Part shown: piece by piece, positions 3,731 through 51,400 of the stretch
Numbering within the stretch: position 1 is the stretch's first letter
Layout of the letters: each line of letters opens with the position of its first letter
Virus record (IMG/VR): IMGVR_UViG_3300037589_000184
Coordinates: 34,523-98,522 of that record
Strand: one strand, 5' to 3'
Source: a virus
Lineage: Duplodnaviria; Heunggongvirae; Uroviricota; Caudoviricetes
Length of the DNA: 64,000 bases
The notes under the pieces: generated by a model
Database searches by the model: none
Told to the model about the DNA's origin: nothing
Seen by the model: the letters and a program-made list of their open reading frames with translations, nothing else
Program-made: the position numbers and the translations under genes

Positions 3731-4672
3731 GAATATAGGGGATAAAGCATACTTGGATGGATACAAGTAAAATATTTCCGTGCCTTAGGGTTTGAGGTGT
3801 CGCTGAGGTCTTTGACCAACTGGTGCGAATAAATTTGATGTACAAAAACCCATTCCTCTATTTTAGGACAAAGGTTAAACCTTGAAACCTTATAGTATAC
3901 GAAGCCGTGGAAACGGGGCACAGTATACTATGAAAGAAAGATAGATGAAAAATGTAAAGTTCGAGCATAGATAATATGTCATGAGGGTGCAACAACAGAC
4001 AAGGTCTTCTATGACCGTGTCTAGGGCCTCGATGTATTACATATAAATCTATTCAGTGTACCCCTGATATGCCATTTGAGGGGGAATAAGATAAGCCAGT
4101 AGCCATTGAGGATACTAGCCTATACGACTACAGGAACCTGCTATTCAGGTAAATGGTATCCAATATCATGGTTGTACGGATTGTAGTTGGTCCAGTACAA
4201 TGACCCTGTCTTTGATACACTGAGGAGTTGGCAGCTAGACTTCCATATTTCAGCTATCACACTTTAGTGTTGTGGTGTAAGCCAATATGGTGGTGCTAAA
4301 CAATATTATGGAATCCCCCTCCTGTCCCAGTCCCGTGAAGAACGGACCTGTATAATTACCGTGGTGACCAGATGTGAAGATTGGAAACTTGACATCCCTC
4401 CGGTGCCGGGGCAACACGTGGATAGGGGGGTTATGGAACATGGGTGTCCCATAATTGTCGTTGACAGCATTTTCGGAATGTAGGCCCCGAAGGTGTGGGA
4501 CATCCCATCTTTTTATGTCGGCACCATATCGTGAGCGTGGTGGGCATTGGATATGAAGGACAAAAAGTGAAGTCTTGGATGTGCAGTACAACTGGTCCAA
4601 GGAGGTGCTGTACTACCATTGTCCTTCTATTTTATGTATCTTTGGAATGTTTAACCAAAACATTAGAAAGAT

Positions 4673-5752: not shown

Positions 5753-5787
5753 GGGAACAGGTTTGTTTTGAACCTGTTCCCTTTTAT
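5753..5787 (+). terminator. rho-independent terminator hairpin
   Basis: Perfect 9-bp stem GGGAACAGG/CCTGTTCCC with an 11-nt loop, followed by TTTTAT. Confidence 0.55.
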
Positions 5788-5800
5788 CGTAACTTCCTCC

Positions 5801-5826
5801 CCTCAAGACCCTCACTAATTTATACC
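5801..5826 (+). promoter_or_regulatory. conserved promoter-like motif copy 1 (CCTCAAGACCCTCACTAATTTA), T3-promoter-like core
   Basis: One of three near-identical copies of CTCAARACCCTCACTAATyT. Its core ACCCTCACTAA equals the T3 RNAP promoter core. It sits between a terminator and the lipoprotein gene. Confidence 0.4.
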
Positions 5827-5851
5827 ATAAACATAATTGATAAAAAAGACC

Positions 5852-6454
5852 ATGAAAAAACTCATTATCGTGCCCCTGTTGGCACTTCTTGCATCATGTA
5901 CCATCTCCGAACAGTGTGATGGGTGCAAGGAACCAATCGTACAGACCATTGTGGATACTCTCTACATAGAGACACCACCTGTCATCGACACATTGTATGT
6001 GGAAGTCCCTGTAGTGGAGATCGACACTGTATATGTTGACAATATCATTGTGGATACCCTGTTATGCAAACAAGTGTCCAAAACCTTTGATTTCAAGGAT
6101 TTTCCAAAGGGGTGCACAGATGTCACGCTTGACGGTATTGTCATTGACAGTGATGCACAGTATTCCGTGGTGGACACCTATGCAGGACTAGGACTCTATG
6201 CGGAGGACGGAATCTCATTTGATTTTTCCTCCTATGGAGAGGGTACCGAGCTTGATTATATCTACTATAAGGCCGTGGACTGTCCCGGGGAATACATCTA
6301 TTGGGACAATGGACAGATGGAACTGCCACACAGGTCCTATGGACAACCTGTTTACCTTAACATTGACCAGATCACAGAGGGGTTTTATCTTGATATCAAG
6401 AAAAAGCTCATCCTGTTGGAATTTGGCATAAAAACCTATGAATGTGATGAATAG
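5852..6454 (+). CDS. lipoprotein
   Basis: MKKLIIVPLLALLASCT is a signal peptide with a lipobox. The track ORF starts at a TTG at 5837, and the ATG at 5852 is the likelier start. Confidence 0.45.
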   Translation: MKKLIIVPLLALLASCTISEQCDGCKEPIVQTIVDTLYIETPPVIDTLYVEVPVVEIDTVYVDNIIVDTLLCKQVSKTFDFKDFPKGCTDVTLDGIVIDSDAQYSVVDTYAGLGLYAEDGISFDFSSYGEGTELDYIYYKAVDCPGEYIYWDNGQMELPHRSYGQPVYLNIDQITEGFYLDIKKKLILLEFGIKTYECDE

Positions 6455-7454
6455 ACTCTTTATTATAATGCTCCTGTTTGTGTGCAGCATATCTGCACAG
6501 GAGTTCAAGCCGTGGACATTCGAGCTTGGAACAGGCCTCCACTGGGTGGATGGCCAATGTGACCTTTCATTGGATGACAATACAGTGGATGTAAAAGCAA
6601 GGGCAAGGTACAATTTCAACGAGACCTTCGGCCTACAGTTGTCGGCACAACATTCAGCCCTATCTTTTGAGGGATTTGGAAAAGTGCCATATCAAAGGGC
6701 GGCACTTGGTGTATCGACAAATCTCTGGAACATTCTTGACATACGTTCAAACACGTTCAAGGTACTGATGTACGGGGATGTGGGGTACTCAAGGATGACG
6801 GCAAAGGATTATATCGAGGCACAGAGGATGTTCTCCACTTCATTGTCCATTGCACCTGTTTTCAGGGTCAATGATGACATTTCCATAAAACTTGAGGCCA
6901 CTTCCATAATGAACCATGGAAAACATGCCTCCTTTGATTTCCAATCGGCTACCCAACACACCTTGGTCAATACCCTGCACATAGGGGTCATGTACCACAT
7001 AGGTAAAAAAGGTTCCCCCGCTGATTGGTACAAAAGAAGGGTAAAAGTGGACACTGTTGTGCTTGAGAGGCCCTCCACTGCCGTTGTCGAGAGGACAATA
7101 GTGGAAAAGGAGTGCATCAAATGTGATGCCCCATCCGATATCATGGAACATGTCTATTTCAGGTATGATGTGGACTCCATTGACAAGGATGGCCTTGATG
7201 CACTGCAACATATAGTGGAAGGGTGGAAATCTGGGGACAGTATCACTGTGACAGGTCATGCATGTCCTTCCGGAAATCCCGGGTACAACCTTGACCTTTC
7301 CCGAAGAAGGGCAACAAACGTAAAACAAAAACTACAAAGGGCAGGTATCCCTGAAAGTGCCATCTTACTTGAGTATAAAGGAGAGGACACCAATAAGGGG
7401 AAACATGACCATGATATGGCAAGAAGGGTGGACATTGTCCTGAAACGGAAATGA
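6438..7454 (+). CDS. OmpA-family protein (signal peptide plus C-terminal OmpA peptidoglycan-binding domain)
   Basis: Signal MNRLFIIMLLFVCSISAQ. C-terminus TVTGHACPSGNPGYNLDLSRRRATNV...ARRVDIVL matches the OmpA_C-like motif (TGHTD..G....N..LS..RA). Confidence 0.55.
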   Translation: MNVMNRLFIIMLLFVCSISAQEFKPWTFELGTGLHWVDGQCDLSLDDNTVDVKARARYNFNETFGLQLSAQHSALSFEGFGKVPYQRAALGVSTNLWNILDIRSNTFKVLMYGDVGYSRMTAKDYIEAQRMFSTSLSIAPVFRVNDDISIKLEATSIMNHGKHASFDFQSATQHTLVNTLHIGVMYHIGKKGSPADWYKRRVKVDTVVLERPSTAVVERTIVEKECIKCDAPSDIMEHVYFRYDVDSIDKDGLDALQHIVEGWKSGDSITVTGHACPSGNPGYNLDLSRRRATNVKQKLQRAGIPESAILLEYKGEDTNKGKHDHDMARRVDIVLKRK

Positions 7455-7484
7455 CCCTTCATGGTTGGTTAATTTAGTTGAAAA

Positions 7485-7512
7485 GGCAGATATCTTTATA
7501 TCTGCCTTTTTT
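7485..7512 (+). terminator. rho-independent terminator hairpin
   Basis: GGCAGATAT-CTTT-ATATCTGCC followed by TTTTTT. An A-tract upstream makes it potentially bidirectional. Confidence 0.55.
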
Positions 7513-7528
7513 GTTGATACCTCCCTCA

Positions 7529-7556
7529 CCTCAAAACCCTCACTAATTTAGGGACT
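7529..7556 (+). promoter_or_regulatory. conserved promoter-like motif copy 2 (CCTCAAAACCCTCACTAATTTAGGGA)
   Basis: Same motif as at 5801, immediately after a terminator and before a small gene. It includes a downstream TTTAGGGA reminiscent of the T3/T7 +1 GGGA. Confidence 0.4.
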
Positions 7557-7598
7557 TAGGTGCCGTGCAATCTTTATGGTGCCAAAAAACAGATAGCC

Positions 7599-7817
7599 AT
7601 GACCGAGTTTTTAAGAAAATTGGGCAATAACATAAAACCTGAGAGACAACATATATTGGATGCCAATCAAATGGCGGATGATATATTCTCAAGGGAACCT
7701 GCCCTCCATCTGGAAATGTTCGAGGCCATAGCAAAGAGGCTTGCCGCCAACTATGAGGTTGGACGCAACAATTTTGTAAACTTCAAAAAACCAGACACAG
7801 ATGAAGAAAAAAAGTAA
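7599..7817 (+). CDS. hypothetical small protein
   Basis: The track ORF starts at a GTG at 7560 overlapping the motif. The ATG at 7599 (MTEFLRK...) is the likelier start. Confidence 0.25.
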   Translation: MTEFLRKLGNNIKPERQHILDANQMADDIFSREPALHLEMFEAIAKRLAANYEVGRNNFVNFKKPDTDEEKK

Positions 7818-8044
7818 GTACACGGAATCAGGTGCCCTTGCCTCGTTGAGGAAAAAGGGTGTGGTTCCCGGAAAAAAGAAGAGATTGATCCTGAAAGACT
7901 CCTCTAGGGAGATAGGTTCGGGATCATGGGGAAAATTGGATTTCCTCACAGGAATAGGCTACACCGTTGTGGACAAGAGATCAGGTCAGTGATGGCCCAA
8001 TTCCCATATTGTGTAGAAAGTAGGTGGTTAGGTTTTTTGGGAAC

Positions 8045-8091
8045 AACAGGGCCACTATAAGACCATTTTTAGAAAGGCCCGTGGCCCTGTT
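8045..8091. repeat. perfect 11-bp inverted repeat (AACAGGGCCAC...GTGGCCCTGTT) with 25-nt spacer
   Basis: Seen directly in the intergenic region between the 7992 and 8119 ORFs. No U-tract follows it. Confidence 0.4.
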
Positions 8092-8118
8092 ATATTCAAC
8101 CTTAAAAGACCTTTTACC

Positions 8119-8454
8119 ATGACATTTAGACAATTGCCCAAATTTGTGCCGTACCTCAACCAGAATGGGCATCTATCCATGATAGTGGCCGAACATGGCA
8201 AGACTGCACATATAATGAACCACCATGGCAGTGTATGGTCCCTAAAGAGGGACAGTGCCTATGCCACAAACGTACATCTGTCCACTCCTGATATCACACC
8301 AGAGGAGTTTTTTGATGAAATGCCCCCCAATCTATTGGAAGGGTACAGTTCAAAATATTTCAAAAAGACCTTTGATATGGCAAAAGATGCCTATCTGAAA
8401 TCAAAAGGACAGCCCTTGCTTCCGTGTGCCCATAGATTGTTGTTAATTTGTTGA
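8119..8454 (+). CDS. hypothetical protein
   Basis: 111-aa ORF with an ATG start. Confidence 0.3.
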   Translation: MTFRQLPKFVPYLNQNGHLSMIVAEHGKTAHIMNHHGSVWSLKRDSAYATNVHLSTPDITPEEFFDEMPPNLLEGYSSKYFKKTFDMAKDAYLKSKGQPLLPCAHRLLLIC

Positions 8455-8663
8455 TCATGGACCATAACAACACAACCTATCAAGAGGCCCTGCTCAAGAG
8501 ACTGGAAAATAAGGAACAGTTCTACTTTGAAGCCTATGGTGGCATAGGTAAGGTTCCCTCCCCTGATGCATATTCCATACAGATGGCAATGTACATGAGG
8601 GTACAAAGGGCATTTGCCCATAAAAAATATCGACTATTATTAATCTGTTAAAAACCCGTTGAG

Positions 8664-8960
8664 ATGAAAATTTTGGAAATCCTTTCTCAGGACAAAGAGA
8701 CACTTGAAAAGAAAAAGGCCGAAAGAGTGGCCAAGGCCCTTGCCAGAAAGCAGGAGGCACTTATCGATAAATTGGAGGACCAGAAGGATACCCTCTTGGC
8801 CAAGAAGGACAGTCTGCTGTCCATCACGGTAAGTAGTGTCAACCAAGAGACTTGGAACGATCAGTTGCAAGAAACTCTGGTGGAGCTTACCACGCTCGAT
8901 AAGCAGATCGAGATTGCCAAGAATACCTCCGAGGAATTCTTCTCCGAAACACAGGCATAG
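8664..8960 (+). CDS. hypothetical coiled-coil protein
   Basis: 98 aa rich in K, E and L heptads. Ends in TAG. Confidence 0.3.
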   Translation: MKILEILSQDKETLEKKKAERVAKALARKQEALIDKLEDQKDTLLAKKDSLLSITVSSVNQETWNDQLQETLVELTTLDKQIEIAKNTSEEFFSETQA

Positions 8961-8962
8961 CC

Positions 8963-9493
8963 ATGGCTTCCCTAAAATGCTATCTCTCCGTGTCCAATCT
9001 AGTGGACACGGAGAGAGTGGATCAGGTCTCCAACTTTCTTGCCCCGAAGAACATACAGGTAAGTTTCCATAAGCGTGGAAAGAACTATGATGAATCAAAA
9101 TTGGTGAACTCAGATTTTGTACTGTTCATTCCTTGGGCCAAGACCGTTTCAAAGGACAGGTCACAATCAAAGAAGACATTCGAGAACGTGGTAGGCAAGG
9201 GGCAGTTCGGGGAGGCAACACACTGTTGTATGCTGAACAAGCCTGCTTTTGTCTTCCAAGGGTTCGATGATGATGGACAACTGCTCATGACCAAGCTCTA
9301 TGAAGAGGACCATGAGCACCTTGCCATCATGGAGGACTGGAAGAAGAGATGGGGATGGATAAGGAGCTATGTACGTGGCAATGGCCCCGTGCCACTTATC
9401 CAGTTCTTGGAAGGTTTCTTCGGTTGGTACTCACCTGTACCGGAACAACTTGATCTATTTGACAAGAATAAAAGATTTCTACTACTTTTGTAG
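8963..9493 (+). CDS. hypothetical protein
   Basis: 176-aa ORF ending in TAG. Confidence 0.3.
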   Translation: MASLKCYLSVSNLVDTERVDQVSNFLAPKNIQVSFHKRGKNYDESKLVNSDFVLFIPWAKTVSKDRSQSKKTFENVVGKGQFGEATHCCMLNKPAFVFQGFDDDGQLLMTKLYEEDHEHLAIMEDWKKRWGWIRSYVRGNGPVPLIQFLEGFFGWYSPVPEQLDLFDKNKRFLLLL

Positions 9494-9565
9494 AAGTGTT
9501 CATCGTGGGGAGGGACCTGCTTTCGTCACCCAGTGATGTCTTCCTCCCCTCTTTGAACCTATAAT

Positions 9566-9950
9566 GGGGCATACAGGCTTTGACAGGTGATATGACCTAT
9601 AATGTTCAGCCAAGAGAGATAACTTGTAAAAACTAAGGTGAATTTACTTAAACGGCAACGTAGAAGATCAAATTCAGGCCAACATGGACACAGTCCATGC
9701 AATTTTGGGAAGCGAAGTAGAAGTAGCTGCCTAAATTTGGCAAGGCCCGTACAAGGTCTCTAGGCATCGGCCATTGTACAATTTTAGGTTAAGTGAGTCA
9801 GGCCACTCGACTGGAAGTGGACAGAGGTTTCCATCTTTACTCTGGATCGTACAAGGATGGTGGTGGAACCCAACTTCGGTTGGCCCCTAAGCTGTATAAA
9901 ACATTGTAGTGATTACATTTTGGACCGGGGTTCGATTCCCCGATGCTCCA
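9566..9950 (+). ncRNA. ssrA: tmRNA (ssrA-like transfer-messenger RNA), phage-encoded
   Basis: 5' GGGGCAT pairs with 3' ATGCTCC to form a 7-bp acceptor stem carrying the G3:U70 wobble that is the alanine identity element, followed by discriminator A. The T-arm is CGGGG-TTCGATT-CCCCG. The 5' D-analog GGCTTTGACAGG resembles E. coli GGATTCGACGGG. The overall 3' end GGACCGGGGTTCGATTCCCCGATGCTCCA is close to E. coli GGACGCGGGTTCAACTCCCGCCAGCTCCA. An internal ORF ends ...GSEVEVAA-TAA at 9732-9734. Length is about 385 nt. Confidence 0.6.
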
Positions 9951-10481
9951 CAAAATATGGTGAATGTACATCATCATAGGAGAAAATTGAAGCAGAACAA
10001 AAAGCATAGGGAAGTTCGAAGAAGTTGACGCAGAGAAAGAACAGGCATCCGGATTGACTTTTGAACATCAATGGAACGTGGCTACTTACCACTTCAATTT
10101 TCTCACCTTATTAAAAGTCTGGCCACCCTTTAGGCTGAGTCCAACTTACGTTAGAGTAAGAAGAGGATAGTAATCGGGTGGCACAGCAACAATAGTGAAG
10201 ACCATATCGATCTGATGATACGTAAGCGAGGCTTTCATCTTAACTGGATTGAACTCGATGTGCATGGCAAGCCGTTAAACTCCTCCTCAGGATCAGCACC
10301 CCGAACATCACAATGATCTAGGTCTTTGTGGTCTTCCTATAAAGTATTCAAGATCAAACAGTCATCTGGGACACACTCAGTACCCATAATATAAGACAGC
10401 TTATTGTGGGGAACGTGGACACAGTGGCCAGTGTCATGTCCCGGATACTGTTTGTGTTATTATGGACAGTTCTGTCCTTAT

Positions 10482-10506
10482 CTCAAAACCCTCACTAATC
10501 TGGGGA
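10482..10506 (+). promoter_or_regulatory. conserved promoter-like motif copy 3 (CTCAAAACCCTCACTAATCTGGGGA)
   Basis: Third copy of the motif, preceded by a small hairpin (GGACAG..CTGTCC), upstream of the 10740 gene and the helicase gene. Confidence 0.35.
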
Positions 10507-10739
10507 ACAACATAAAGGAAAAGGCCCGGAGGTATGTGAAAGGCTGTGAGAACCATGTATACGAAAAATGTCACGGTACCCTGTGGACATGTAGTAGGTA
10601 CAAAGGGTGTCCAATCCGGTTAGGTGGAGATAAGACCATCGATGGAACATGTTTTCTTATCCATGTTCCCCTTTTCCTTTTCAATTTGGATTTAATTATC
10701 ATACATATTTTTATTAACATTTTTTAAAAGCGTTTTCAA

Positions 10740-11366
10740 ATGGAAACTACAGCAACAGAAAGCAGAATCAGGAAGGAAGTGTCCAAAAGTACACTGGACG
10801 TAAGCCGTGTGTACAGCAGTGATTATCAGAAAGAGGGCACCCAGACTGCCGAGCTTCGCCAGAAAGTGACCACTAAGTCCTTTTATCCCACAAAGGCCAT
10901 TGCCAATGACAAGCAGGACAATGTCTTCGGTATGGAGGAATTCGGGTTCGAGGAACAGGAGTATGTCAACGAGGAGAACCGTGTAGCTTGGATCGATGTC
11001 CCCGTAGGGACCACAATCGAACAGGTGAAGGCAAAATTGGCTGCCCATCCAACTGCGGGTCTGTACAGGATATTGGCCAACAAGCCCATCCTTACGGACA
11101 ACCAGAAGTATGCAGTGGAGAACAACATTGCCAGTTATGACACCTTTGCCAATAGCCAAGTGGTAAGGTTCCCGGAAGGTGCCGAGAGAGCAGGTGAACT
11201 TGCCCTTGACCAAAATGGCAAGCCACAGTACCGTGCAATCTTCTTCAAGAAGGAAGATCCTGTGGACCAAGATCTCCGTACCATGGACGAGGTTTTCTAT
11301 GCATCTCCCCAAATCCAAGAGGAGCTTAACGAGAACCCACATGTGGTAACAGGTCAGCAACTTTAG
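10740..11366 (+). CDS. hypothetical protein
   Basis: 208-aa ORF with an ATG start. The antisense 222-aa ORF is judged spurious because it is rich in L, C, H and W. Confidence 0.4.
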   Translation: METTATESRIRKEVSKSTLDVSRVYSSDYQKEGTQTAELRQKVTTKSFYPTKAIANDKQDNVFGMEEFGFEEQEYVNEENRVAWIDVPVGTTIEQVKAKLAAHPTAGLYRILANKPILTDNQKYAVENNIASYDTFANSQVVRFPEGAERAGELALDQNGKPQYRAIFFKKEDPVDQDLRTMDEVFYASPQIQEELNENPHVVTGQQL

Positions 11367-11377
11367 TTCAACCTAAG

Positions 11378-12808
11378 TTGAAAGGGACATCCGAGAGGGT
11401 GTTCCTTTCCTTTTTTAATACCAAGACAAAAATGCCATTGACACCACATCAACAAGAAGTGCAGGACAGTGCACTCAGTATCATAAAATCAGGGAACAGG
11501 CTCCTTATAAAGGGGAGTGCCGGTGTGGGAAAGACCTACCTGATGAACAGCTTCATAGAGGAGGCCAGAAAATATCTTTCCCCCTACAAGACGATATACT
11601 GTTCGGCCCCTACCAACAAGGCAGTGGCAGTTCTCAAATCGAAGGTGACCAATACGGACAATGTGGAGTTCATAACCCTACATTCCGCACTGAAATATAA
11701 GAGGATAGTGGACAGAAAAACAGGAGAGGTCTCCTTTGGCCCCGTGTTCTCCGAAAGGAACAAGCCATTGAAAGGGGTCTCCATGATAGTGGTGGACGAG
11801 GCTTCTATGGTGGGACATGACCTGCACAGGGACCTTGAGCACTTTGCCAACCTCATGGGGGTAAAGGTGGTGTTCGTCGGGGACCACAAGCAGCTCAATC
11901 CTGTCCAAGAAGAGATAAGCCCTGTCTTTATGGGAACGTCAAAGACCTATACACAGGAAGAGTACCAAGAGAAGGGGATTGTACCGGGACCTGATGAGAT
12001 TTTAATTGAAAAAGAGGGATCCATCACTGTTTCCACCCCATATCCCACAGTGGAGCTTACCGAGATTATAAGACAGGGGGACGGAAATCCCATTATAGAC
12101 CTCAGCAGGAACTTGAAAAGGATATGGACCTATGAGGACAACCTTGTATCCAATGAACCTAAGGTGGGGTATATGCACTCAAGGGACAAGGAGAGGGTCA
12201 TATCCACCCTTGCGGCAATCAATGGTTCGGATGAGCTGAAATACCTCGGTTATACCAATCAGGATGTCGATGCACTGAACACTGCCGTGAGGAAGAGAAT
12301 ATATGGCAATCCCAGAAAGGTCGAACCCGGGGAGAGCATTATATTCAATTCTCCCTATAAAGATCTGTACTATACCAACCAAGAGTTGAAGATAGAGGAG
12401 CTGACAGTCGTTGAGCAATTGTTCTACCTTCCCTATCAGGATAGATCCGATAAGGTAAAGCTCAAGGTGTATGTCATCAACGGGAAGGAGATGGAAGGTG
12501 GGTGGAACGGAGTATTCGTGGTGCACGAAGAGCATGAAAAGCAGTTCCGTACATTGGCCATGGTCACAAAAAGGGCCTGTGAGGCAAGGAACATGACTTG
12601 GGTGGACAGGGATGCATTCCTTTCCCAGTTTGCCGATATCAAGTACAACCATGCCATCACGGTGCACAAAAGTCAGGGCAGCACCTATAAACAGGTCATC
12701 CTGAACATTTCCAATCTCTCCATAAACAGGGATGAGATAGAGAAACAGAGACTCTTTTATACAGGGGTCACAAGAGCAAGTGAACTATTAATACTTTTTA
12801 ACAACTAA
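11378..12808 (+). CDS. Dda/RecD-like SF1 DNA helicase
   Basis: Walker A GSAGVGKTY, Walker B VVDEASMV, and C-terminal motif TVHKSQGSTY characteristic of the RecD/Dda/Pif1 family. The start may instead be the internal Met of MPLTPHQQ. Confidence 0.7.
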   Translation: MKGTSERVFLSFFNTKTKMPLTPHQQEVQDSALSIIKSGNRLLIKGSAGVGKTYLMNSFIEEARKYLSPYKTIYCSAPTNKAVAVLKSKVTNTDNVEFITLHSALKYKRIVDRKTGEVSFGPVFSERNKPLKGVSMIVVDEASMVGHDLHRDLEHFANLMGVKVVFVGDHKQLNPVQEEISPVFMGTSKTYTQEEYQEKGIVPGPDEILIEKEGSITVSTPYPTVELTEIIRQGDGNPIIDLSRNLKRIWTYEDNLVSNEPKVGYMHSRDKERVISTLAAINGSDELKYLGYTNQDVDALNTAVRKRIYGNPRKVEPGESIIFNSPYKDLYYTNQELKIEELTVVEQLFYLPYQDRSDKVKLKVYVINGKEMEGGWNGVFVVHEEHEKQFRTLAMVTKRACEARNMTWVDRDAFLSQFADIKYNHAITVHKSQGSTYKQVILNISNLSINRDEIEKQRLFYTGVTRASELLILFNN

Positions 12809-13943: not shown

Positions 13944-15848
13944 ATGGAATATACCATTTTTGATAAGGAGACAAACGGTCTCTACAGGGAAGTCACAAAG
14001 ATACATTGTATAAGCTATTCCGATTTCAGGGATGGTGAACTTGTGGGGAAGGGTGTCCTTACCGATTATGGTGACATGAAAGCTTTCTATTCCACCAGAC
14101 CTGTTCTGGTGGGCCATAACATCACCAGATATGACCTTCCAGTGGCAAAGAAGATATTGGGAGTGGAATATGGAGGGACCGTTGTGGACACACTCGGGAT
14201 TTCTTGGCAGATGTTCCCCATGAAAGGATATAAACATGGCCTTGAGGCTTGGGGGGAGAGATTGGGATTTCCCAAGCCCCCAATCGAGGATTGGAGGAAC
14301 CTTTCACTGGAAAGATACATTGAAAGGTGCAACGGGGATGTCGAGATAAACACACGGCTGTTCCATGAACAGTTGAAATACCTCAAGGAACTGTATGCCC
14401 ATGGTGGTGACCTTGCCTCATTGTTTTCCTATATACATTTCAAGATGCAGTGCCTTTGGGACCAAGAGCTTGAAGGGATACCATTGGATGAGGAAATGTG
14501 TATAAGGAGCAGGGATGCCGTACAGGCAGAGATCGATGAAAGAGTGGCAACATTGAGTGCCGAAATGCCCCCTGTACTTGATAAGACCGCACCAAAGAAG
14601 ATGTACAAACAGGATGGGATGTTGTCCAAACATGGTGAAAAGTGGATCGATTACATAACCGAGCTTGGATTGCCAGAGGATACCATGGAGACCTATGTTC
14701 CCGGAAATCCGGGGAGTCCGGACCAATTGAAATCTTGGTTGTTCAGCCTTGGATGGGAACCTATCACTTTCAAGACATCAAAGAATACAGGGGAGGAAAT
14801 TCCACAGATTTCACTTCCATTCGGTGGTGGGATATGCCCCAGTATCGAGGATATGTACGATGACCATCCAGTATTGGAGGCCCTTGGGGGATTCTATATG
14901 CTCAGGCATAGGTTGGGGCTGTTCAAGTCCTTTCTTGAGGCCAAACATGAAAACGGAAAGGTCTATGCCACTGCCCATGGGTTTACCAATACCATGAGAT
15001 TGAAGCACTCAAAGCCGATTGCCAATCTTCCCGGTGTGGACAAACCTTGGGGCAAGGAGATAAGGGGATGTTTCAAGATCCCCGACCACAACCATATCAT
15101 GTGCGGCTCCGATATCAGTGGACTTGAGGACAATACCAAACAGCACTATATCTACTTCTATGATCCAAAATATGTGGAGGAGATGAGGGTGCCGGGATTT
15201 GACCCCCACTTGGATATTGGAAAGCTTGCAGGTCTGATAACACAGGAAGAGGAGGATTTCTATAAAAGGGTGGACTCCCTGTCAAGGGAGGAATATGATT
15301 CCCTGTCGGAAGAGGATAAAAAGACCTTTAAGGCCATAAAGAAGAAACGGGGCACATCAAAGACAGTGAATTTCTCCGCTACTTATGGTGCAGGGGCAGC
15401 AAAGATAGCCATCACCGCAAAATGTGATGTACCCTTTGCACAAAAGCTCCACTCCATATATTGGCAAAGAAACTCGGCAGTAAAGAAAACTGCAAATGCC
15501 TGTGTGGTAAGGAAAATAAGGGGCCAAAAATGGCTCTATAATCCTGTTGCCAATCTCTGGATGTTCCTAAAGGCCGATAAGGACAGATTTTCGACACTCA
15601 ACCAATCCACAGGTGTCTTTGTGTTCGATTCTTGGCTCAGAAGGGTCAGGCAGAACCTAAAGCCCTATGGGATCAAGATCTTGATGCAGTACCATGATGA
15701 GATCATGTTGATACTGCCCAAAGGATATGAGGATGTGGTGGAGGCAGTGCTCAGGAAGAGTATGCAGGAGGTGAACGACCAGATAAGGCTCAACGTGGAG
15801 ATAGGCATATCCGTTGATTTTGGAAACAACTATGCCGATTGTCACTAA
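13944..15848 (+). CDS. family A DNA polymerase with N-terminal 3'-5' exonuclease (DnaQ-like) domain
   Basis: Exo I motif FDKETNGL. Pol A motif A GSDISGLED, motif B RGTSKTVNFSATYGAGAAKIA, and motif C QYHDEIMLI. Confidence 0.85.
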   Translation: MEYTIFDKETNGLYREVTKIHCISYSDFRDGELVGKGVLTDYGDMKAFYSTRPVLVGHNITRYDLPVAKKILGVEYGGTVVDTLGISWQMFPMKGYKHGLEAWGERLGFPKPPIEDWRNLSLERYIERCNGDVEINTRLFHEQLKYLKELYAHGGDLASLFSYIHFKMQCLWDQELEGIPLDEEMCIRSRDAVQAEIDERVATLSAEMPPVLDKTAPKKMYKQDGMLSKHGEKWIDYITELGLPEDTMETYVPGNPGSPDQLKSWLFSLGWEPITFKTSKNTGEEIPQISLPFGGGICPSIEDMYDDHPVLEALGGFYMLRHRLGLFKSFLEAKHENGKVYATAHGFTNTMRLKHSKPIANLPGVDKPWGKEIRGCFKIPDHNHIMCGSDISGLEDNTKQHYIYFYDPKYVEEMRVPGFDPHLDIGKLAGLITQEEEDFYKRVDSLSREEYDSLSEEDKKTFKAIKKKRGTSKTVNFSATYGAGAAKIAITAKCDVPFAQKLHSIYWQRNSAVKKTANACVVRKIRGQKWLYNPVANLWMFLKADKDRFSTLNQSTGVFVFDSWLRRVRQNLKPYGIKILMQYHDEIMLILPKGYEDVVEAVLRKSMQEVNDQIRLNVEIGISVDFGNNYADCH

Positions 15849-24880: not shown

Positions 24881-26128
24881 ATGAACCTAATTTCCAACAG
24901 TTCCCATCTTGAAGATTTTATGTTTGCTGCAAGATCTATGTCAAGAACAAAGAAAGTGTCTTGGATAACAAGGATGGCCATGCAGAACAGGCTCTGCTAC
25001 AGCAACGGTAAATGGGATGCCTTCTATATGGACAAGTACATAGAGTTCATGGAAAAGCTCGTGGACACCATGGACAGGGTGTTCGGCCAAGAGTGGGACA
25101 TGCATGCACAGTCCTTCATGGCAGAAGGGCCGGACAACTATGAAAGGGAGGACGTATATGAACTGTTCCCCGTGATCCGTTTCAAAAGGGTACTCCTCAA
25201 AAATTCAAAGGGACTTGAGAAACCCTTGAACGATATGTTCATGTCATTCAGGGTGGAGAAGTCACCGGAGGGCCATTTCTATTTAAGATACCCCACAGGG
25301 ACAAGGGCGACCTTCCCAGTGGAGGACATGAACACGGGCTTTGTCCACTCACACCTGAGGTACAGGAGCATCAACCGTTTTTCCGATGCCTTCATGCTAC
25401 AGGGGTTCTGTACCGGCAGTGGGGAGATAAACGATTTTCTTGCACAGATGAGGGGGGAGGACGTGGATTCCGGGTTTTTGGAATTTTTCTTTGTGTTCCT
25501 TGATACCTTCATCTCTTGGGAGAGCCTTGAAGGGACCCCCCATGCCTATATGAGCAAGACCCTGTCCGAATACGACAGGCAACAGGTCAATCCGGGAGAG
25601 GCCATGTGCAGGGAGTGCTATATGGGCCTTCGTGAAAAATTGGCCGAAAATCCCGAACTGTTCTCAAGCCCGGACTTTGTCTTCCACGATGGAAGATATA
25701 TCATAAAGGACAACCCAAAACTCGATATGCTGTTGAGAAGGGTGTCCATGTCCTCGGCCTTTATAAAGAAAAAAGTGCTCTGTAAGCTTTCCCCTGATGG
25801 AAAGTATTACTCCATGAAAAAGGGTTCCGCCTCACGGCAAGATCTCGGAGAGTACAACAGGAGCATGGAGAACAGCTTTGGTGAAAGACCATATTTCCTG
25901 TTACAGGGGGAGAAGGTCCATTACACCATTGTCCAGTCAAGACAGGAAAAGGACGACCCAGAAGAATTCAATGTTCACCCAAAATTCAAAGAATATGTCA
26001 AACAAAGAATGGAAGAGAAGTTATACAGCAGGGCAATTAGATATAGTGAACTTGCAGCCCAACGTCAAGGTAATGATGCCGGATCCAGTGTTGTTGAAGA
26101 TCAAGTACCTGTGCAAGAGCATTCCTGA
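24881..26128 (+). CDS. hypothetical protein
   Basis: 415-aa ORF directly upstream of the JAB and E1 pair. Confidence 0.4.
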   Translation: MNLISNSSHLEDFMFAARSMSRTKKVSWITRMAMQNRLCYSNGKWDAFYMDKYIEFMEKLVDTMDRVFGQEWDMHAQSFMAEGPDNYEREDVYELFPVIRFKRVLLKNSKGLEKPLNDMFMSFRVEKSPEGHFYLRYPTGTRATFPVEDMNTGFVHSHLRYRSINRFSDAFMLQGFCTGSGEINDFLAQMRGEDVDSGFLEFFFVFLDTFISWESLEGTPHAYMSKTLSEYDRQQVNPGEAMCRECYMGLREKLAENPELFSSPDFVFHDGRYIIKDNPKLDMLLRRVSMSSAFIKKKVLCKLSPDGKYYSMKKGSASRQDLGEYNRSMENSFGERPYFLLQGEKVHYTIVQSRQEKDDPEEFNVHPKFKEYVKQRMEEKLYSRAIRYSELAAQRQGNDAGSSVVEDQVPVQEHS

Positions 26129-27182
26129 TGTGGAATGGTCGGGCATACTTTTCTACTCAATAAAGGGCAGTATAAAAAAACCTGCCACCATGCAGATCAT
26201 ATTGGAGGACATCCTCCCAATGGACAAAGGATCAAAGACCTATACCGAATACAACATCGATGAGAGGTATATGGAGTACATCATGGAGGATGAGAGCAGG
26301 ATGGAGTGGAAAATGGGCCATATCCATTCACACAATACCATGAACGTGTACTTCTCGGGCACTGATATGTCCGAACTCAATGACAATGCCCCATCACACA
26401 ATTTCTATCTGTCCCTTATAGTGAACAACTATATGGACTTTACAGCAAAGGTTGCCTTTGTGGGCAGCATGAAGGAGAAAGTGAAAAAGCTCAATTACAT
26501 GGCCCTTGATGAAAATGGCCAAAAATATGTGATAGAGAAAAGGGACTTCACCATTGAGAAGGAAAAACTGTATGTTCTGGGATGTGACATAAGGCACAAT
26601 GCAGAGACCATAACAGTGGGGCAGGACTTTGCCGATAAGGTAAGGGAACTCCTCAAACCAAAAGTGGTGCAGCCCGTACAGACAACACAGCAAAAAAGAA
26701 ACCCGAACACCCCACTCTTACCTGCCCCGAAAACAAACATGAAGGACAGGCCGGGAAGAGGGGATGCCGTAAAGAAGAACGGGAAAAAGAACAAGAGCCT
26801 TGCCGAAATGTTCGATGAATGGGAGGCCGATGTGAACCTGTTCCAAAAGGCAACGGATTCCACACACGAGGGATTCTGTACCAGTGTCCTGAACTTTTCA
26901 CTGGGTGTCCCGGATGAAGTGGGGATAGAGGATATCCTCAGCAGTTACGAGGATCTCAACATGACACCACAGGAACTCGCAAGCAGTGTGATGCACGTGT
27001 ATGTGGCAGTCTATGAAGGATACTATGATGATGTGGACGATACTGAAATGTTCATTGAGAGGACACAGATTTTCTTGGAAAACCTTGAGGAGTGGGAAAG
27101 TGTGTTCCCCATAGTATCGGACACCATAGACGTAGTAAGGGAAATGTTAACCAAATTTGAAGAATATGGAACATCAGTATGA
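26073..27182 (+). CDS. JAB/MPN+ (JAMM) metalloprotease-domain protein
   Basis: HIHSHNTMNVYFSGTD matches HxHx7Sx2D, with an upstream Glu in ILEDILPMDKG. Start is assigned to the internal ATG at 26073, because the track ORF from 25878 overlaps the upstream gene in another frame. Confidence 0.55.
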   Translation: MMPDPVLLKIKYLCKSIPDVEWSGILFYSIKGSIKKPATMQIILEDILPMDKGSKTYTEYNIDERYMEYIMEDESRMEWKMGHIHSHNTMNVYFSGTDMSELNDNAPSHNFYLSLIVNNYMDFTAKVAFVGSMKEKVKKLNYMALDENGQKYVIEKRDFTIEKEKLYVLGCDIRHNAETITVGQDFADKVRELLKPKVVQPVQTTQQKRNPNTPLLPAPKTNMKDRPGRGDAVKKNGKKNKSLAEMFDEWEADVNLFQKATDSTHEGFCTSVLNFSLGVPDEVGIEDILSSYEDLNMTPQELASSVMHVYVAVYEGYYDDVDDTEMFIERTQIFLENLEEWESVFPIVSDTIDVVREMLTKFEEYGTSV

Positions 27183-27840
27183 CAGGTTCAAAGATGCCCC
27201 TTGGTTCCCAAGGAACGAGGAGGCCTGCCTCATAGGAGGAGCAGGTGGAATAGGCAGTTGGCTGACCTTCTTTTTGACAAAAGCGGGCTTCAAGCCCATT
27301 GTATATGATCACGACACCATAGAGGAGCACAACATAGGTGGTCAATTGTTCCGTGTAAAGGACATCGGAAAACCAAAAGTGGAGGCAATATCCTCCATAG
27401 TGAAGGAGTTCTGTGGTGATGACATATCCACTTTTGAGACAAAGGTGGACCTCAATTCCCCCACTCACCATTTCTGTTTCTCGGCATTCGATAACATGAA
27501 GGCCAGAAAGGATCTGTTCGAGGTGTGGAAGAGGTCCATTCCGGGATGTACGGTGATACCCCTGTTCATAGATGGCAGGCTCACCATGGAACAGTTGCAG
27601 ATATTTGCCGTGACCCCGGACAGGGTGGCACAATATGAGGAGCACCTGTTCGATGATTCGGAAGTGGAGGACGAGGCCTGTACATTGAGACAGACCTCAC
27701 ACACCGCTGCAATGATAGCCTCCCACATGACATCCATATTTACGAACCATCTCACCAATGTCTATGAACGTCAGGTATACAGGGACGTACCCTTTTTCTA
27801 TGAGTTCTATGGCCCGGTGAGCCTTACAAACATAGAGTGA
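27157..27840 (+). CDS. ThiF/MoeB/E1-like adenylyltransferase (ubiquitin-activating-enzyme-like Rossmann domain)
   Basis: GAGGIGS nucleotide-binding loop, YDHDTIEEHNIGGQ corresponding to DxDxVExxNLxRQ, DNMKARKDL, and CTLRQTSHTAAMIASHM. It overlaps the JAB gene stop. The likely start is the ATG at 27166. Confidence 0.6.
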   Translation: MKNMEHQYDRFKDAPWFPRNEEACLIGGAGGIGSWLTFFLTKAGFKPIVYDHDTIEEHNIGGQLFRVKDIGKPKVEAISSIVKEFCGDDISTFETKVDLNSPTHHFCFSAFDNMKARKDLFEVWKRSIPGCTVIPLFIDGRLTMEQLQIFAVTPDRVAQYEEHLFDDSEVEDEACTLRQTSHTAAMIASHMTSIFTNHLTNVYERQVYRDVPFFYEFYGPVSLTNIE

Positions 27841-28922: not shown

Positions 28923-29312
28923 ATGGCAGGAGGAAACAACAAGAGAAAAGGCTCCGATGCCGAAAGATTATATGCCAAGGTCTTTAGGGACCTTGGTTTT
29001 TCTTTCGTGCAGACCTCTAGGTACGGGAGCAGGATACACGATGATGCGGGGATAGACCTGATAAATCTCCCCATCAATGTGCAGATCAAGGCCGGCAGGC
29101 AAAAGGGGATGAACCCCAGTGCAGTAATAGCGGACATCAAACAAAGAATTTCCCAGATGTTCCCAAAGAAGTCAGAAGAACATACCAACCCTCTTGTGGT
29201 GATACATAGGAAGGAAGTCGGTAGAGGTAAAAAAAGGGGAGAGGTGGACGACATTGTCCACATGAGTTTTGAAGATTTCAAAAAACTGTTAATTAGAATA
29301 AAATGGGAGTGA
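28923..29312 (+). CDS. Holliday-junction resolvase, Hjc-like (PD-(D/E)xK fold)
   Basis: KGSDAERLYAKVFRDLGFSF...DDAGIDLI resembles the archaeal Hjc GSxxER...GF...D.IA pattern. Start is assigned to the ATG at 28923, because the track ORF starts upstream inside the previous gene. Confidence 0.5.
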   Translation: MAGGNNKRKGSDAERLYAKVFRDLGFSFVQTSRYGSRIHDDAGIDLINLPINVQIKAGRQKGMNPSAVIADIKQRISQMFPKKSEEHTNPLVVIHRKEVGRGKKRGEVDDIVHMSFEDFKKLLIRIKWE

Positions 29313-35183: not shown

Positions 35184-36328
35184 GTCAAATAGACGTTACC
35201 TATAACAGATTGTTGGATTCCATCTTAAAGATGGGGTACAATTACAGGACTGCGAACAGACCTGATATCGATTGCAGACAGATAGCCTCCGTGAACATGG
35301 AAGTTACCTTGGAGACATTCCCATTGATCACGACAAAGGAAATGTACTGGAAGGGGATCGTGGCAGAGCTGATATGGTTCCTCCGTGGGGATCAGAACAT
35401 CAAGTTCCTTGTGGACAATGACGTGCACATCTGGGACAAGGATGCCTACAACTGGTACAAGAAACTTTGCTCTGAACAGGACACTGTTGCCATAGACTTC
35501 ATTGATTTTCTGACAGAAGTCAAGGCAGGTACCAAAAATGTGGCCCTCGGTGACTATACCTATGGGGATGTTGGCCTCAACTATGGGGTACAATGGAGGA
35601 AATGGGCAGGGCATGAGAAGTTTCCTGCCGGACCAAGGGATTATATAGATTTGGTGGAATTTGATCAGATCAAAAATCTCATTGTCAACCTGAACAAGAC
35701 CAACCCCATTAACCGTAGACACATTGTCACTGCTTGGAACCCTGATGAGGTGAACGATACCGCACTTCCACCATGCCACTGGTCATGGGAGATCATACCA
35801 AGGCCACTGTTCCTACATGATAGGATAAACCTATGCAGACAAGAGGACCAAGAGCCTTTGGCAGAGCTGTGGGGGGAAATGTCAAAGGGTAACAAGGAAG
35901 CCGAGGAAAAGTTGAGGAAAAGCCTTGTTCACATACCCAAGTATGCCTTTACATTGAAGTGGCACCAAAGAAGTGTGGACACATTTTTGGGACTCCCCTT
36001 CAACATTGCATCCTATGCACTGCTTGCACACATCATAGGGGAACTGACGGAAATGCTCCCTCTTGAGCTTATAGGTGATCTCAGCAATGTGCACATCTAT
36101 GGCCCCCACAATGAAATGGTCACCGAACAACTGTCAAGAAATCCCTTGGAATATCCGGGATGCCATCTTGAACTCAGTGAGAGGTTTGTGGCCGATGTGG
36201 AAAAATTTAAGAAAGGAAAGCTCTCTATTGATCTGTTGTTCAAACAGTTACAGATTTCAGATTTTCAAGTTCCGGATTATGAGTCCTTTGGAAAATTGAA
36301 GGCCGAAATGTTTGAACCAACGGAATAA
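35180..36328 (+). CDS. thyA: thymidylate synthase ThyA family (with about 40-aa insertion, possibly a dUMP-modifying paralogue)
   Basis: FPLITTKEMYWKGIVAELIWFLRGD, active-site LPPCH, and QRSVDTFLGLPFNIASYALLAHI with the dUMP-specifying Asn retained. A large insertion lies between the PCH and QRS motifs. The protein is 382 aa, where 264-320 aa is typical. Confidence 0.8.
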   Translation: MSQIDVTYNRLLDSILKMGYNYRTANRPDIDCRQIASVNMEVTLETFPLITTKEMYWKGIVAELIWFLRGDQNIKFLVDNDVHIWDKDAYNWYKKLCSEQDTVAIDFIDFLTEVKAGTKNVALGDYTYGDVGLNYGVQWRKWAGHEKFPAGPRDYIDLVEFDQIKNLIVNLNKTNPINRRHIVTAWNPDEVNDTALPPCHWSWEIIPRPLFLHDRINLCRQEDQEPLAELWGEMSKGNKEAEEKLRKSLVHIPKYAFTLKWHQRSVDTFLGLPFNIASYALLAHIIGELTEMLPLELIGDLSNVHIYGPHNEMVTEQLSRNPLEYPGCHLELSERFVADVEKFKKGKLSIDLLFKQLQISDFQVPDYESFGKLKAEMFEPTE

Positions 36329-41516: not shown

Positions 41517-41588
41517 GGCCCGTTAGCTCAGTGGCTAGAGCAATGGTCTCTAAAACCGTGGTCATGGGTTCAATTCCCATACGGGCCT
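41517..41588 (+). tRNA. tRNA with anticodon CUA (amber/UAG suppressor tRNA); amino-acid identity undetermined
   Basis: Full cloverleaf: acceptor GGCCCGT/ACGGGCC, U8, D-stem GCTC/GAGC with an AGTGGCTA loop, anticodon stem ATGGT/ACCGT, loop C-U-CUA-A-A (U33, anticodon CUA, A37), 4-nt variable loop, T-stem ATGGG/CCCAT with loop TTCAATT, and discriminator U. Confidence 0.85.
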
Positions 41589-41661
41589 CTTAACATTAAT
41601 TAATTGTATTATGAAAAAAGATACAGAATACTAGGTAAACAAAGGGGACTTTATCACAGTA

Positions 41662-48404: not shown

Positions 48405-51400
48405 TCAAATACAATCTGGTAGTTTCTTATGATTCGATTCAGGAAGCAGGTCCGTCACCGGTTCCTGTGGTGTCTGTGTATCAGGATCGAAGTCCGTGTC
48501 CACATTCTTCTTGAATGTATCAAAGGTATTGTTTTTTTGTCTTTTGAGGGTCTCTTCCTCTATAAAAACAAGGGTGTCCAACAATGCGGACTCTGCAAGT
48601 GAGCCTGATTTTATATCTGGGTTCAACGCTCTCAATATCCTCATAACTGCCTCCCTGAATTTATCAACGAGGGTCATATTGGACCTTTTGTACATTACCT
48701 TTGACATTTCCTCTTGGAACTTGGGTTCCGTAAGGGCAGTGGTAACAAATTCAAATATGTTCACGGAACCATATATATAGGCATCGTTCTCGTTGAACTC
48801 CGTGGGCAATCCAGGTTTTCTGTCATCCAGTTTCTTTTTCAGTACCTCTGTGGCCTCTGCCCCTATATGTTTCTTGAATTCGTTGAACACAAGGTGCAGA
48901 TTGGTCACATATCCGGGAACGGTGATGTCCGATCTCAATGTATTGCCGTCACTCTCATAGTATTTCCTCAGTTCCGTAGATGTTACCGAATGTACCGATT
49001 CATGTACAAAGGTACGGGCAGTCTTTTCTGGCCCCTTCATAAGGGAGTTGTCCACGTCAAGATAAATGGTGTCCTCTTTCCTGTTGTACCTCCCCGAGGC
49101 ATTGGTGCCCCTCCTTACCTTTATGTTCGTACTCTCCTTCAATACGGGAATCAGTGCCCTTGCGGCCTCTGGAAGGTTCTTGTACCTCTCGAACTTTGTG
49201 TTGGAGATCATTTCCATCACATCGGCAGGAAGACTGTCATCCGTTATGTCAAAAGGGTTGGTCAACATCTTGGCAGTGGCCTTCTTTATATTTGGCTCTT
49301 TTTTCGGCCTTGTGTCCACATTGTCCAAAAGGGACTTTGCATCCTGTTCATTGTACTGGTACTCCGACATACCATGTGTTCCCAAGATGGATATCCTTTT
49401 ATAAAGGGAGTTGCCCTGATGCTCAAACAAATGGAACTTGTCCTGTTTTCTTTTGCTCTTGGTGGGTACCCTCATCGATATGAACTTTGGCCTGTCATCA
49501 CTGTTCAAAATGAACGATGTCATCTTACTGCCCTTTCCCTCCTGTGGGGAAAACAGTTGTTTCTGTTGTTCCTTACTATACTGCCTTGCCTTTTCGGGAA
49601 AATGCTGTATATACTGTTTGGTGAACAGGTGGGTACTGTTTTCAGTGGTCTCCCTGTGCCCCAATACTTTTTGGAATATATCGGGCCTTCTGTTAGAGTT
49701 ATAGGACTGCATCACATTGGCAGCGGAAACAAACCTGTCCCCTGATCTTACGCCCACGGACTCAAGATACTCTATGGGCACATATTTTATGAACTGGATG
49801 GCCTCCTGTATCCCTCCCTCTATGTAGGCATAGGTTATAAGATCCTGTGCAAGTTCCCTAGTGGAATATGGTGATCCATTGAGGTCTGGCAATGGCCTGT
49901 CCTCCACTATCAGTTCGGCAAAGGAATTGTAAAGGTACTCCTCATCAAAATTGTCGTTGGATGTATTGTTGAACTTTATCAATGAAGGTTCCCCCATATT
50001 GCCCAGTGAGTATGAGAACTTGTTCAACAACCTGTTTTCCTTTACTGCATTTGTCCCCTGTGAGAATCCCCCGAACTTTTTGCCCCTGTTGGTGATGTCA
50101 TTGAGGTACCTTGCCAAGGAAACATTGGTGTCCGAGTCCATAAACAATCTTTTTCTTTCATTGTTGGCAGTATCGGTGAACAATCCATTGTTCTTCCTTG
50201 AATAGATATACTTCTTGATTTCCCTGATGACTTCCTGTCTTCCCTCGATTTCCTTAAAGCTGCTCTCTGTGTCCGTGTTCGAGACAATAAGGGTCTCATT
50301 GACCACTGAGTTGAAATATCTGTCATTATATGGGAAATATGAGTTCCAGAGACTGTTGCCCAATCTTGTGCCCTCAAGGACTATCTGTCCCTGTGGTGTC
50401 CTTGCCTGCATATAATTGTCACCGACTATATGGTATCCCTCTGGGGCCTCCCCTCCCTCTATCGGCCTACTGTCACCTATAAGGGAGAAGGCATTGGCCA
50501 CTCTCTGGTTGTTGGGGAGATCTGCAAGGTTGCGGAAAAGTACAGCGGATTCCACTATGGACTTTCCTAGATTGTTGGTATTCAGTACAGACTGTAACCT
50601 TGATATGCTCCTTGCATAGGTATCGAGTTCAAGGAACTTTGCCAATGCGGCCAACTGTACCTTTTTGTCCTCTCCGAAGGAACTTATTCCCTCCAACATA
50701 TTATCCCCCGTCAACATGGTGGACCAATCCACTTCCTCGTATGTATCGGATGTCAATAGACTGCCCTCCGAATATACAAGGTTTCCATTTGAATATGTTG
50801 ACACAAGGTCTGCCACTGTCCTTTCCTGTAGGTCACGGACATAGTCGGACACTATCCCCTTCCCGTTCTCCATACGGGATACATATTCCCTCAATATGGG
50901 CTGTGAGAGCAACAGATAGGAAATGGAGTTCCCATTGCTGTCCTTGTCAAAACCAAGTGCAGTGAGCAGGGAATCCACATTGATGGTAGTGGAGTTTATG
51001 TTCACCCTACCAAGTATCTGTTCCTTCTCATTGTCAGTGGCAGTGTTCTGCCTTTCGGCAAACACTTCTGCAACGGATCTTTCCCCATCCAATGTCCTTT
51101 CCCTTCCAAGTGTGCCATCCGATCTTAGATTGCCCATCACCACTTCTTTTGGAACCATTTCATCCTCTCCTACATTCTCCATCAATCTCAATGGATCCGG
51201 AACCTGTTGTGAAAGTCCGTGGAAGGTCACATAGTTTGAGTAGACACCAATGGCAAGCTTACCTGCCGCACCAAGTCCCATCTTCTTTTTCTGGTACTCA
51301 TCGGACAACATGGTAAAGGACGTAACATCCTGATTATCAGACAATGCTTCTATCATATCTGCCTGTCCGGATGCAAACTTCATTGAAAGTACCTTATTGA

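Follow-up and report, generated by a model that had tools for sequence, protein, structure and literature searches.

The 64,000-nucleotide (nt) stretch of viral DNA analysed here (positions 34,523 to 98,522 of IMG/VR record IMGVR_UViG_3300037589_000184, Caudoviricetes; the window, at its full length) carries three copies of a 20-nt motif, CTCAARACCCTCACTAATYT, each in front of rightward genes. We conclude, with a probability of roughly 0.6, that these copies are early promoters of the phage's injected virion RNA polymerase (vRNAP), and that they are the fourth to sixth of six copies in a genome of ~98 kb. The evidence is the conservation of the motif sequence, its position and orientation, its co-evolution and the identity of the polymerase, all of which are observed. 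We rate the element as a phage-polymerase-specific promoter, for a class of polymerase without a known promoter.

Three copies of a strand-specific motif

The three copies, at 5802-5821, 7530-7549 and 10482-10501, all lie on the + strand and match CTCAARACCCTCACTAATYT with 0 mismatches. No further match was found in the window when up to 3 mismatches were allowed. Shuffling gave an expectation of 0.01 matches, and none of 100 shuffled sequences held three. A preliminary description of this DNA had reported a 20-nt motif in three + strand copies, which the exact matches and shuffles confirmed; the strings it quoted are all present as written, although TCTCAAAAC begins at 10481, not 10482.

A position weight matrix (PWM) built from relatives only scored the three copies at 37.2 to 38.6 bits (individual scores in Table 1), and nothing in the rest of the 64 kb, on either strand, scored above 8 bits (shuffle maximum, 10.6). 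The alignment of the three copies extends over about 33 nt. This region is unstructured, with a mean minimum free energy of -2.2 kcal (shuffles, -1.6 kcal) and no conserved pairing. With a second PWM, a weak antisense partial match (CACAAACCTCTCACTGAG, ~36172-36189, - strand) appeared inside thyA, at 14.8 bits where the real copies reach 32-38 bits; chance is the probable explanation.

Each copy is preceded by a hairpin, the first two being strong and terminator-like and the third weaker (Table 1), as had been described beforehand. The hairpin before copy 1 closes the unit upstream of it. The genes that had been placed after each copy were also found. Open reading frames (ORFs) begin at ATG 5852 after copy 1 and at ATG 7599 or GTG 7560 after copy 2, while copy 3 is followed by a 56-aa ORF at 10557 and by the phrog_16309 gene at 10740. 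Relatives carry an orthologous copy of copy 3, likewise upstream of the phrog_16309 gene.

The phage and its virion RNA polymerase

The window comes from a crAss-like phage of the Flavobacteriia host group. In the source contig, genes adjoining the vRNAP block match Pfam CrAss_Ring_1, CrAss_Ring_2 and crAss_MUZ, and the regions flanking the window contain crAss ring and muzzle genes and small early genes. When 5-12 kb of the window was compared with GenBank phages by megablast, nothing matched, and relatives were reached by protein searches. Among cultured phages, those of Flavobacterium psychrophilum, FpV4 and Fpv1-3 (Fipvunavirus, 88-92 kb, 27% GC), stand closest to the window. Identity with the window proteins is 46% for the helicase and 34.5% over 4258 aa for the vRNAP, and the early modules are collinear.

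The proposed reader of the motif is a 4176-aa protein encoded on the opposite strand (Table 1). Residues 2606-3354 align to gp66 of phage phi14:2 (PDB 6VR4; E 2.4e-20, 750 residues), and DYDID at residue 3066 falls on the catalytic DFDID of gp66. By homology, the protein is a gp66-type two-barrel virion RNA polymerase. An N4-like identity was rejected, as the match is to 6VR4 (gp66) and not to the N4 mini-vRNAP. The gp66-type enzyme is the only RNA polymerase (RNAP) found in these genomes, and it occurs together with the motif on at least 11 IMG/VR contigs. Two features expected of an early promoter for a gp66-type RNAP were found here: a DxDxD RNAP in a crAss-like virion gene set, and a motif upstream of, and co-oriented with, the early module.

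Searches for other readers gave negative results. T7 RNAP, N4 gp15, gp16 and mini-vRNAP served as phmmer queries against six-frame translations of the window and of complete FpV4, and no match fell below E 0.04, with sensitivity limited by a weak positive control (E 0.011). Among the + strand proteins, PHROG and Pfam scans yielded no RNAP or sigma family, and a search of the replication module's unknown proteins and the small early ORFs found nothing sigma- or RNAP-like. The preliminary description had also seen no T7-like RNAP in the window, and had suggested as reader either an RNAP encoded elsewhere in the genome or the giant virion protein. The latter is now the best-supported option. The former fared poorly, with no T7-like RNAP detected in the window or in complete FpV4.

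Position and polarity in relatives

We anchored 37 homologous loci on the phrog_16309 gene, oriented them alike and scanned them with a PWM cut-off of at least 14 bits. Ninety-five sites were found upstream on the gene strand (shuffles, 1), with 0 in the 349 kb downstream and 0 on the opposite strand. Sites were intergenic in 53 of 55 cases, and the distance from the end of TAAT to the next ATG was always at least 29 nt. A scan of the motif against gene strand had been proposed in the preliminary description, for the complete phage genome; in these loci it agreed with the orientation claimed there.

In relatives, the clusters of copies begin in the divergent intergenic region between a leftward late module (terminase, portal) and a rightward early module. 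At the head of a cluster there is no co-oriented gene upstream, and the copies point into the early genes, often from 45-80 nt before ORFs of ~90 aa. Tandem copies lie 42-117 nt apart with no ORF between them. Because the heads lack a co-oriented upstream gene, copies occur in tandem, sites are intergenic and terminators lie upstream, a promoter explains the motif better than a terminator or an RNA element does.

Part of the source genome was examined through a ~98.3-kb metagenomic contig, Logan SRR12659119_1716 (JGI 3300037566 Ga0394805_000122), which is identical to the window over 10.8 kb. It contains three more copies, at window coordinates -2661, -2365 and -1970, which brings the number in the genome to six. 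Further copies at the divergent junction had been predicted for this genome, and the one at -2661 does lie in the intergenic stretch between the divergent modules, ahead of every + strand gene. No motif site occurred in the 22 kb spanning the vRNAP block and the ring and muzzle genes.

The copy that comes first in each genome has a distinct form, conserved as ACAAnCCCCCCACTnAT and followed ~20 nt on by a conserved purine-rich stretch and a C-run. It was located in locus L276 at 6827 (window -2661), on the - strand of FpV4 at 396, and in L243 at 1263, L244 at 30, L266 at 6410 and L019 at 1011. This suggests that the first promoter is a special one, or that a short leader or small RNA is conserved here. 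Relatives also carry 2-3 paralogous early ORFs of ~91 aa, mutually 65-71% identical, each with its own motif copy before it, then AGTATTAAT. In L002 these ORFs lie at 613-885, 1261-1536 and 2057-2332, with equivalents in L006, L012, L005 and L007; the family is absent from the window.

Conservation and concerted variation of the motif

Exact scans of IMG/VR recovered loci with 2-5 motif copies each. When up to 2 mismatches were allowed, 79 unique sites were found in 31 multi-site loci, and in 30 of the 31 loci they were confined to a single strand. The consensus begins with a T-rich tract at about -25 to -17, continues with C-Y-C-n-n-C and the core TCAAAACCCTCACTAAT, and ends with T-W-n-K-R-G. 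The 17-nt core is nearly invariant in the family and lacks G on the top strand, and the element is asymmetric and non-palindromic. The R of T-W-n-K-R-G, 5 nt after TAAT, is a purine in 78 of the 79 family sites. Among GenBank phages, the motif was present only in 29 Fipvunavirus records, and it was unannotated in all of them. In FpV4, five copies were found, at 396, 279, 20, 87811 and 83713 on the - strand; each lies on the strand of the replication module and no more than 5 kb from its start.

All copies of a given phage genome carry the same lineage-specific substitutions (Table 1), which are also present in the orthologous copy before the transfer-messenger RNA (tmRNA) and phrog_16309 genes. 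As the copies within a genome change in concert, lineage by lineage, the reader of the motif should be phage-encoded. The same concerted pattern is known from the T7/T3/SP6 group, where the sites are read by a protein encoded in the genome.

Alternative explanations

The preliminary description had favoured promoters of the T3/T7 type, read by a single-subunit RNAP from elsewhere in the genome. The sequence likeness behind this is genuine: ACCCTCACTAA occupies -12 to -2 in 13 of the 14 annotated T3 promoters, as checked in the T3 genome, and 12 nt of copies 2 and 3 (AACCCTCACTAA) are identical to -13 to -2 of the T3 promoter consensus. Promoters of the T3/T7 group (23-bp class III, single-subunit RNAP) are, like the motif, contiguous, asymmetric and information-rich blocks in one orientation, often after a terminator, with their own variant in each phage lineage, and GGGA does follow shortly after copies 2 and 3. 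The architecture described beforehand therefore stands in so far as the copies are strand-specific, intergenic and placed between terminator and gene, but its single-subunit framing does not, and we regard a T3/T7-type promoter as extremely unlikely. The phmmer search above, with its weak positive control, and the family searches detected no T7-like RNAP in the window or FpV4, the proposed reader has an unrelated two-barrel fold, and the flanks of the window are occupied by crAss ring and muzzle genes and small early genes. In FpV4, the 37 loci and the part of the source genome examined, copies occur nowhere but at the head of the early module, with none before late genes. Furthermore, GGGA follows the motif only at window copies 2 and 3, and neither the AT-rich -17 to -13 segment nor the +1 GGGAGA of the T3 consensus (-17 to +6) is shared by the motif family. 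The 12-nt identity is real but appears to be coincidence or convergence.

A phage-encoded reader need not be a polymerase. Host RNAP could be redirected by a sigma-like or appropriator protein, made early or co-injected, so that the motif would be a 'middle-type' promoter; the concerted lineage variants require only some phage-encoded reader. In phi14:2, the vRNAP-dependent early transcripts lack a motif and the host-RNAP promoters have one (bioRxiv 10.1101/2020.03.07.982082), and in crAss001 an immediate-early class is separate from the replication genes (PMC10136315). We nevertheless consider this unlikely, as the first copy lies in the divergent region, with no earlier module gene to supply such a factor; PHROG and Pfam scans of the early ORFs revealed no sigma-like or RNAP-binding family; the element is a single contiguous block of about 28 bits or more and not a bipartite -35/-10 arrangement; and the homologous phi14:2 genes are rifampicin-resistant. 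A signal acting on RNA or stopping transcription (an endonuclease site, a leader or translation element in a polycistronic early RNA, or a sequence-specific terminator) would also be intergenic, co-oriented and strongly conserved, and a 26-nt motif at the termination sites of the P23-45 vRNAP provides a precedent (PMC10770324). It is decidedly improbable here, since copies stand at the very head of the module without a co-oriented gene upstream, tandem copies have no intervening ORF, the motif region is unstructured, and copies just past a hairpin and T-run would lie outside the upstream transcripts; membership of the terminators was rejected on the first two of these grounds. Still less probable is an ordinary host promoter or host-factor site (Bacteroidota sigma-A, an extracytoplasmic function sigma factor or a regulator operator) borrowed by the phage. 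The copies lie upstream of genes, their T-rich tracts could serve as UP-like elements, and a conserved host factor is conceivable given that the hosts of the clade are all Flavobacteriia-like. Against this, the Bacteroidota -33/-7 promoter (TTTG / TAnnTTTG) gave no match and was rejected: TTTG-N19-21-TAnnTTTG occurs in 0 of the 3 motif-bearing intergenic regions and at only 3 sites on the + strand of the window. The motif is asymmetric and non-palindromic, with genome-wide concerted substitutions within single phage lineages. In addition, the exact 17-mer gave 43 single hits in 185,579 cellular genomes (596 Gb), where ~69 were expected by chance, and these were scattered over all phyla with unrelated flanks. 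The motif is therefore not a cellular promoter class, and a host-genome regulon was rejected.

A candidate promoter for a crAss-like virion polymerase

In our preferred reading, that of early promoters for the injected vRNAP, the element would span ~25-30 bp, and the six asymmetric promoters would be bound by the vRNAP upon ejection. The reader would be the two-barrel gp66 homologue of 4176 aa, acting by itself or with a phage partner injected alongside it, directly after DNA entry, as for the early (replicative) module of phi14:2. Initiation is predicted at the invariant purine 5 nt after TAAT (A5824, G7552 and G10504), with transcription running rightward into the early genes. Three units would then be transcribed: the lipoprotein and OmpA genes, the small genes with the tmRNA, and the replication module.

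N4 promoters are DNA hairpins with a 5-7 bp stem and a 3-nt loop, read by a T7-like domain. The present system resembles N4 P1-P3 in having few promoters clustered at the early end and, as proposed, a giant virion-packaged polymerase, entering together with the DNA, as their reader, with early and replication genes on one strand and the vRNAP block on the other. It differs in that the polymerase is of the gp66 two-barrel type and the motif region has no hairpin potential; an N4-type hairpin promoter was rejected because this region is unstructured.

Phage phi14:2 (Drobysheva et al., bioRxiv 10.1101/2020.03.07.982082; Nature 2021) shares with the window a homologous polymerase (6VR4, with DxDxD aligned), homologous early genes and the layout of its modules. 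Its early genes are transcribed by gp66 and are rifampicin-resistant (bioRxiv 10.1101/2020.03.07.982082), and the genes after the motif here have homologues among them: g002 (OmpA), Sak4, primase, UDG, ThyX and RNR. The two systems differ in that no common motif was found upstream of the phi14:2 early transcripts, while here a 17-nt core is nearly invariant, and in that the phi14:2 polymerase has 2180 aa compared to 4176 aa here. The nearest precedent is the AT-rich motif of the Thermus phage P23-45, whose gp96 is a two-barrel vRNAP fused to the tape measure. There too, a conserved motif is clustered at one end of the genome and linked to a virion two-barrel RNAP, and the pre-early motif is found only in relatives that encode that polymerase (PMC10770324). 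However, the P23-45 motif has an unrelated sequence and was tied to the polymerase by chromatin immunoprecipitation sequencing (ChIP-seq) and mapping of transcription start sites (PMC10770324), whereas our link comes from genomics only.

Several observations weigh against promoters of the injected vRNAP. In phi14:2, the only crAss-like phage so studied, the early transcripts showed no common upstream motif, and purified gp66 used single-stranded DNA only (bioRxiv 10.1101/2020.03.07.982082); our scan of the first 50 kb of phi14:2 found the motif absent. The homologous locus L239 lacks a copy over 6.5 kb upstream, and no other repeated motif was seen there. The concerted variants track phylogeny and fit any phage-encoded or co-injected reader, not the vRNAP specifically. 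The examination of the source genome covered all but ~15.7 kb, by synteny the capsid and portal region. Strong terminator-like hairpins with T-runs also occur at 11380-11409 and 28974-28997 (+), inside the replication-strand module, with no motif after either; they may reflect read-through or a second type of promoter. Finally, that the motif acts as a promoter, where transcription starts and which enzyme reads it are all deduced from sequence.

We give about even odds to the broader proposal that this is the first sequence-defined promoter class for crAss-like two-barrel vRNAPs, a contiguous element of ~25 bp that co-evolves with the polymerase lineage and whose core converged on the 12 nt of T3. 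Searches of the literature for the literal motif, for crAss-like early promoters and for transcription in FpV4 or Fipvunavirus found nothing relevant. If the proposal is true, the giant polymerases of this clade (>4000 aa) would carry their own sequence-specific promoter-recognition module, one that is lacking or differently used in the 2180-aa phi14:2 enzyme. In the crAss-like infection programme, the injected polymerase is known structurally and has no known promoter. A nearly invariant, co-evolving element offers a concrete DNA ligand, in a clade with culturable phages (FpV4 and relatives on Flavobacterium psychrophilum). It also provides a simple marker of the early-gene boundary for annotating environmental crAss-like genomes, and the 12-nt identity with T3 is curious in that polymerases of unrelated folds may have converged.

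Other features of the window and its relatives

Table 1. Motif copies, hairpins, predicted units and proposed reader in the window, with lineage variants of the motif. Bit scores are from the PWM built from relatives only.
Feature	Position	Strand	Details
Motif copy 1 (fourth of six in genome)	5796-5825	+	core TCAAGACCCTCACTAAT 5803-5819; 37.2 bits; candidate start A5824
Motif copy 2	7524-7553	+	core TCAAAACCCTCACTAAT 7531-7547; 37.4 bits; candidate start G7552
Motif copy 3, heads replication module	10476-10505	+	core 10483-10499; 38.6 bits; candidate start G10504
Intrinsic-terminator-like hairpin, 13 pairs and TTTT	5753-5786 (hairpin 5753-5781)	+	-23 kcal; ends 17 nt before core of copy 1
Intrinsic-terminator-like hairpin, 13-14 pairs and T-run	7481-7512 (hairpin 7481-7510)	+	18 nt before core of copy 2
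Two overlapping weaker hairpins before copy 3, without clear T-run	10429-10477 (10429-10450, 10443-10477)	+	
Unit after copy 1	5852-7454	+	lipoprotein-like ORF 5852-6454; OmpA-domain membrane protein 6438-7454 (Pfam OmpA)
Unit after copy 2	7599-9953	+	small ORFs, then phage tmRNA gene 9566-9953
Unit(s) after copy 3	10557-43730	+	56-aa ORF, phrog_16309 gene, replication/nucleotide-metabolism module (10.7-43.7 kb)
Virion RNA polymerase homologue, 4176 aa, proposed reader	48405-60935	-	matches phi14:2 gp66 (PDB 6VR4) and phrog_16227
Lineage variant CAACACCC			L243
Lineage variant TAAAAACCC			L251
Lineage variant ACCCCCAC			L265
Lineage variant CAAATCCC			L272/L273
Lineage variant CACTTAT			FpV4 group
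Lineage variant TCACAGCCC			L271

The OmpA-domain protein after copy 1 is homologous to the phi14:2 early gene g002 (E 4e-21). The replication module after copy 3 encodes a Dda helicase, a PolA-type DNA polymerase, Sak4, primase, UDG, ExoVIII, dNMP kinase, a further helicase, ThyA and RNR.

The tmRNA gene after copy 2 was called by both ARAGORN and Rfam (RF00023, 65.7 bits) and is conserved across the clade. Its counterparts lie at 5709-6083 in L002, 2549-2952 in L008, 8634-9052 in L006, 4641-5047 in L012 and 11524-11952 in L023, and in FpV4 at record positions 81947-82361, within an unannotated 2.3-kb gap. A tmRNA-like gene was also found in phi14:2 (L029) at 4031-4502 (46 bits, E 7.6e-16, also called by ARAGORN), within the g005-g006 intergenic region that is reported to give a very highly transcribed long non-coding RNA. 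In the window, this gene is preceded, at a distance of 76 nt, by a canonical Bacteroidota-type promoter, TTTG-N21-TACTTTTG, at 9458-9490 (+). Only some relatives showed a comparable box before their tmRNA genes, and a host-type promoter is not consistently conserved at this position.

A tRNA with anticodon CTA (amber suppressor type) was identified by ARAGORN and Rfam at 41517-41589 (+). Of 49 + strand genes, 7 still end in TAG, so that recoding is not evident in the early module; the late structural genes are located beyond the window. An 848-nt stretch at 3731-4578 (+) is free of ORFs, relatively GC-rich and without an Rfam match. It lies downstream of a gene with a HAD_SAK_2 ('Swiss Army Knife' RNA-repair) domain (2468-2983), and may encode a structured non-coding RNA.

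The PolA-type DNA polymerase gene (13944-15848, +) has homologues in several IMG/VR relatives and gave no tblastn match in FpV4, where the flanks are collinear; this looks like a swap of DNA polymerases within the clade. At 25878-27840 (+), within the replication module, an ORF that weakly matches Prok-JAB comes just before a gene of the ThiF family (E1-like). Both are kept in FpV4, and they may form a ubiquitin-like conjugation or deconjugation pair.

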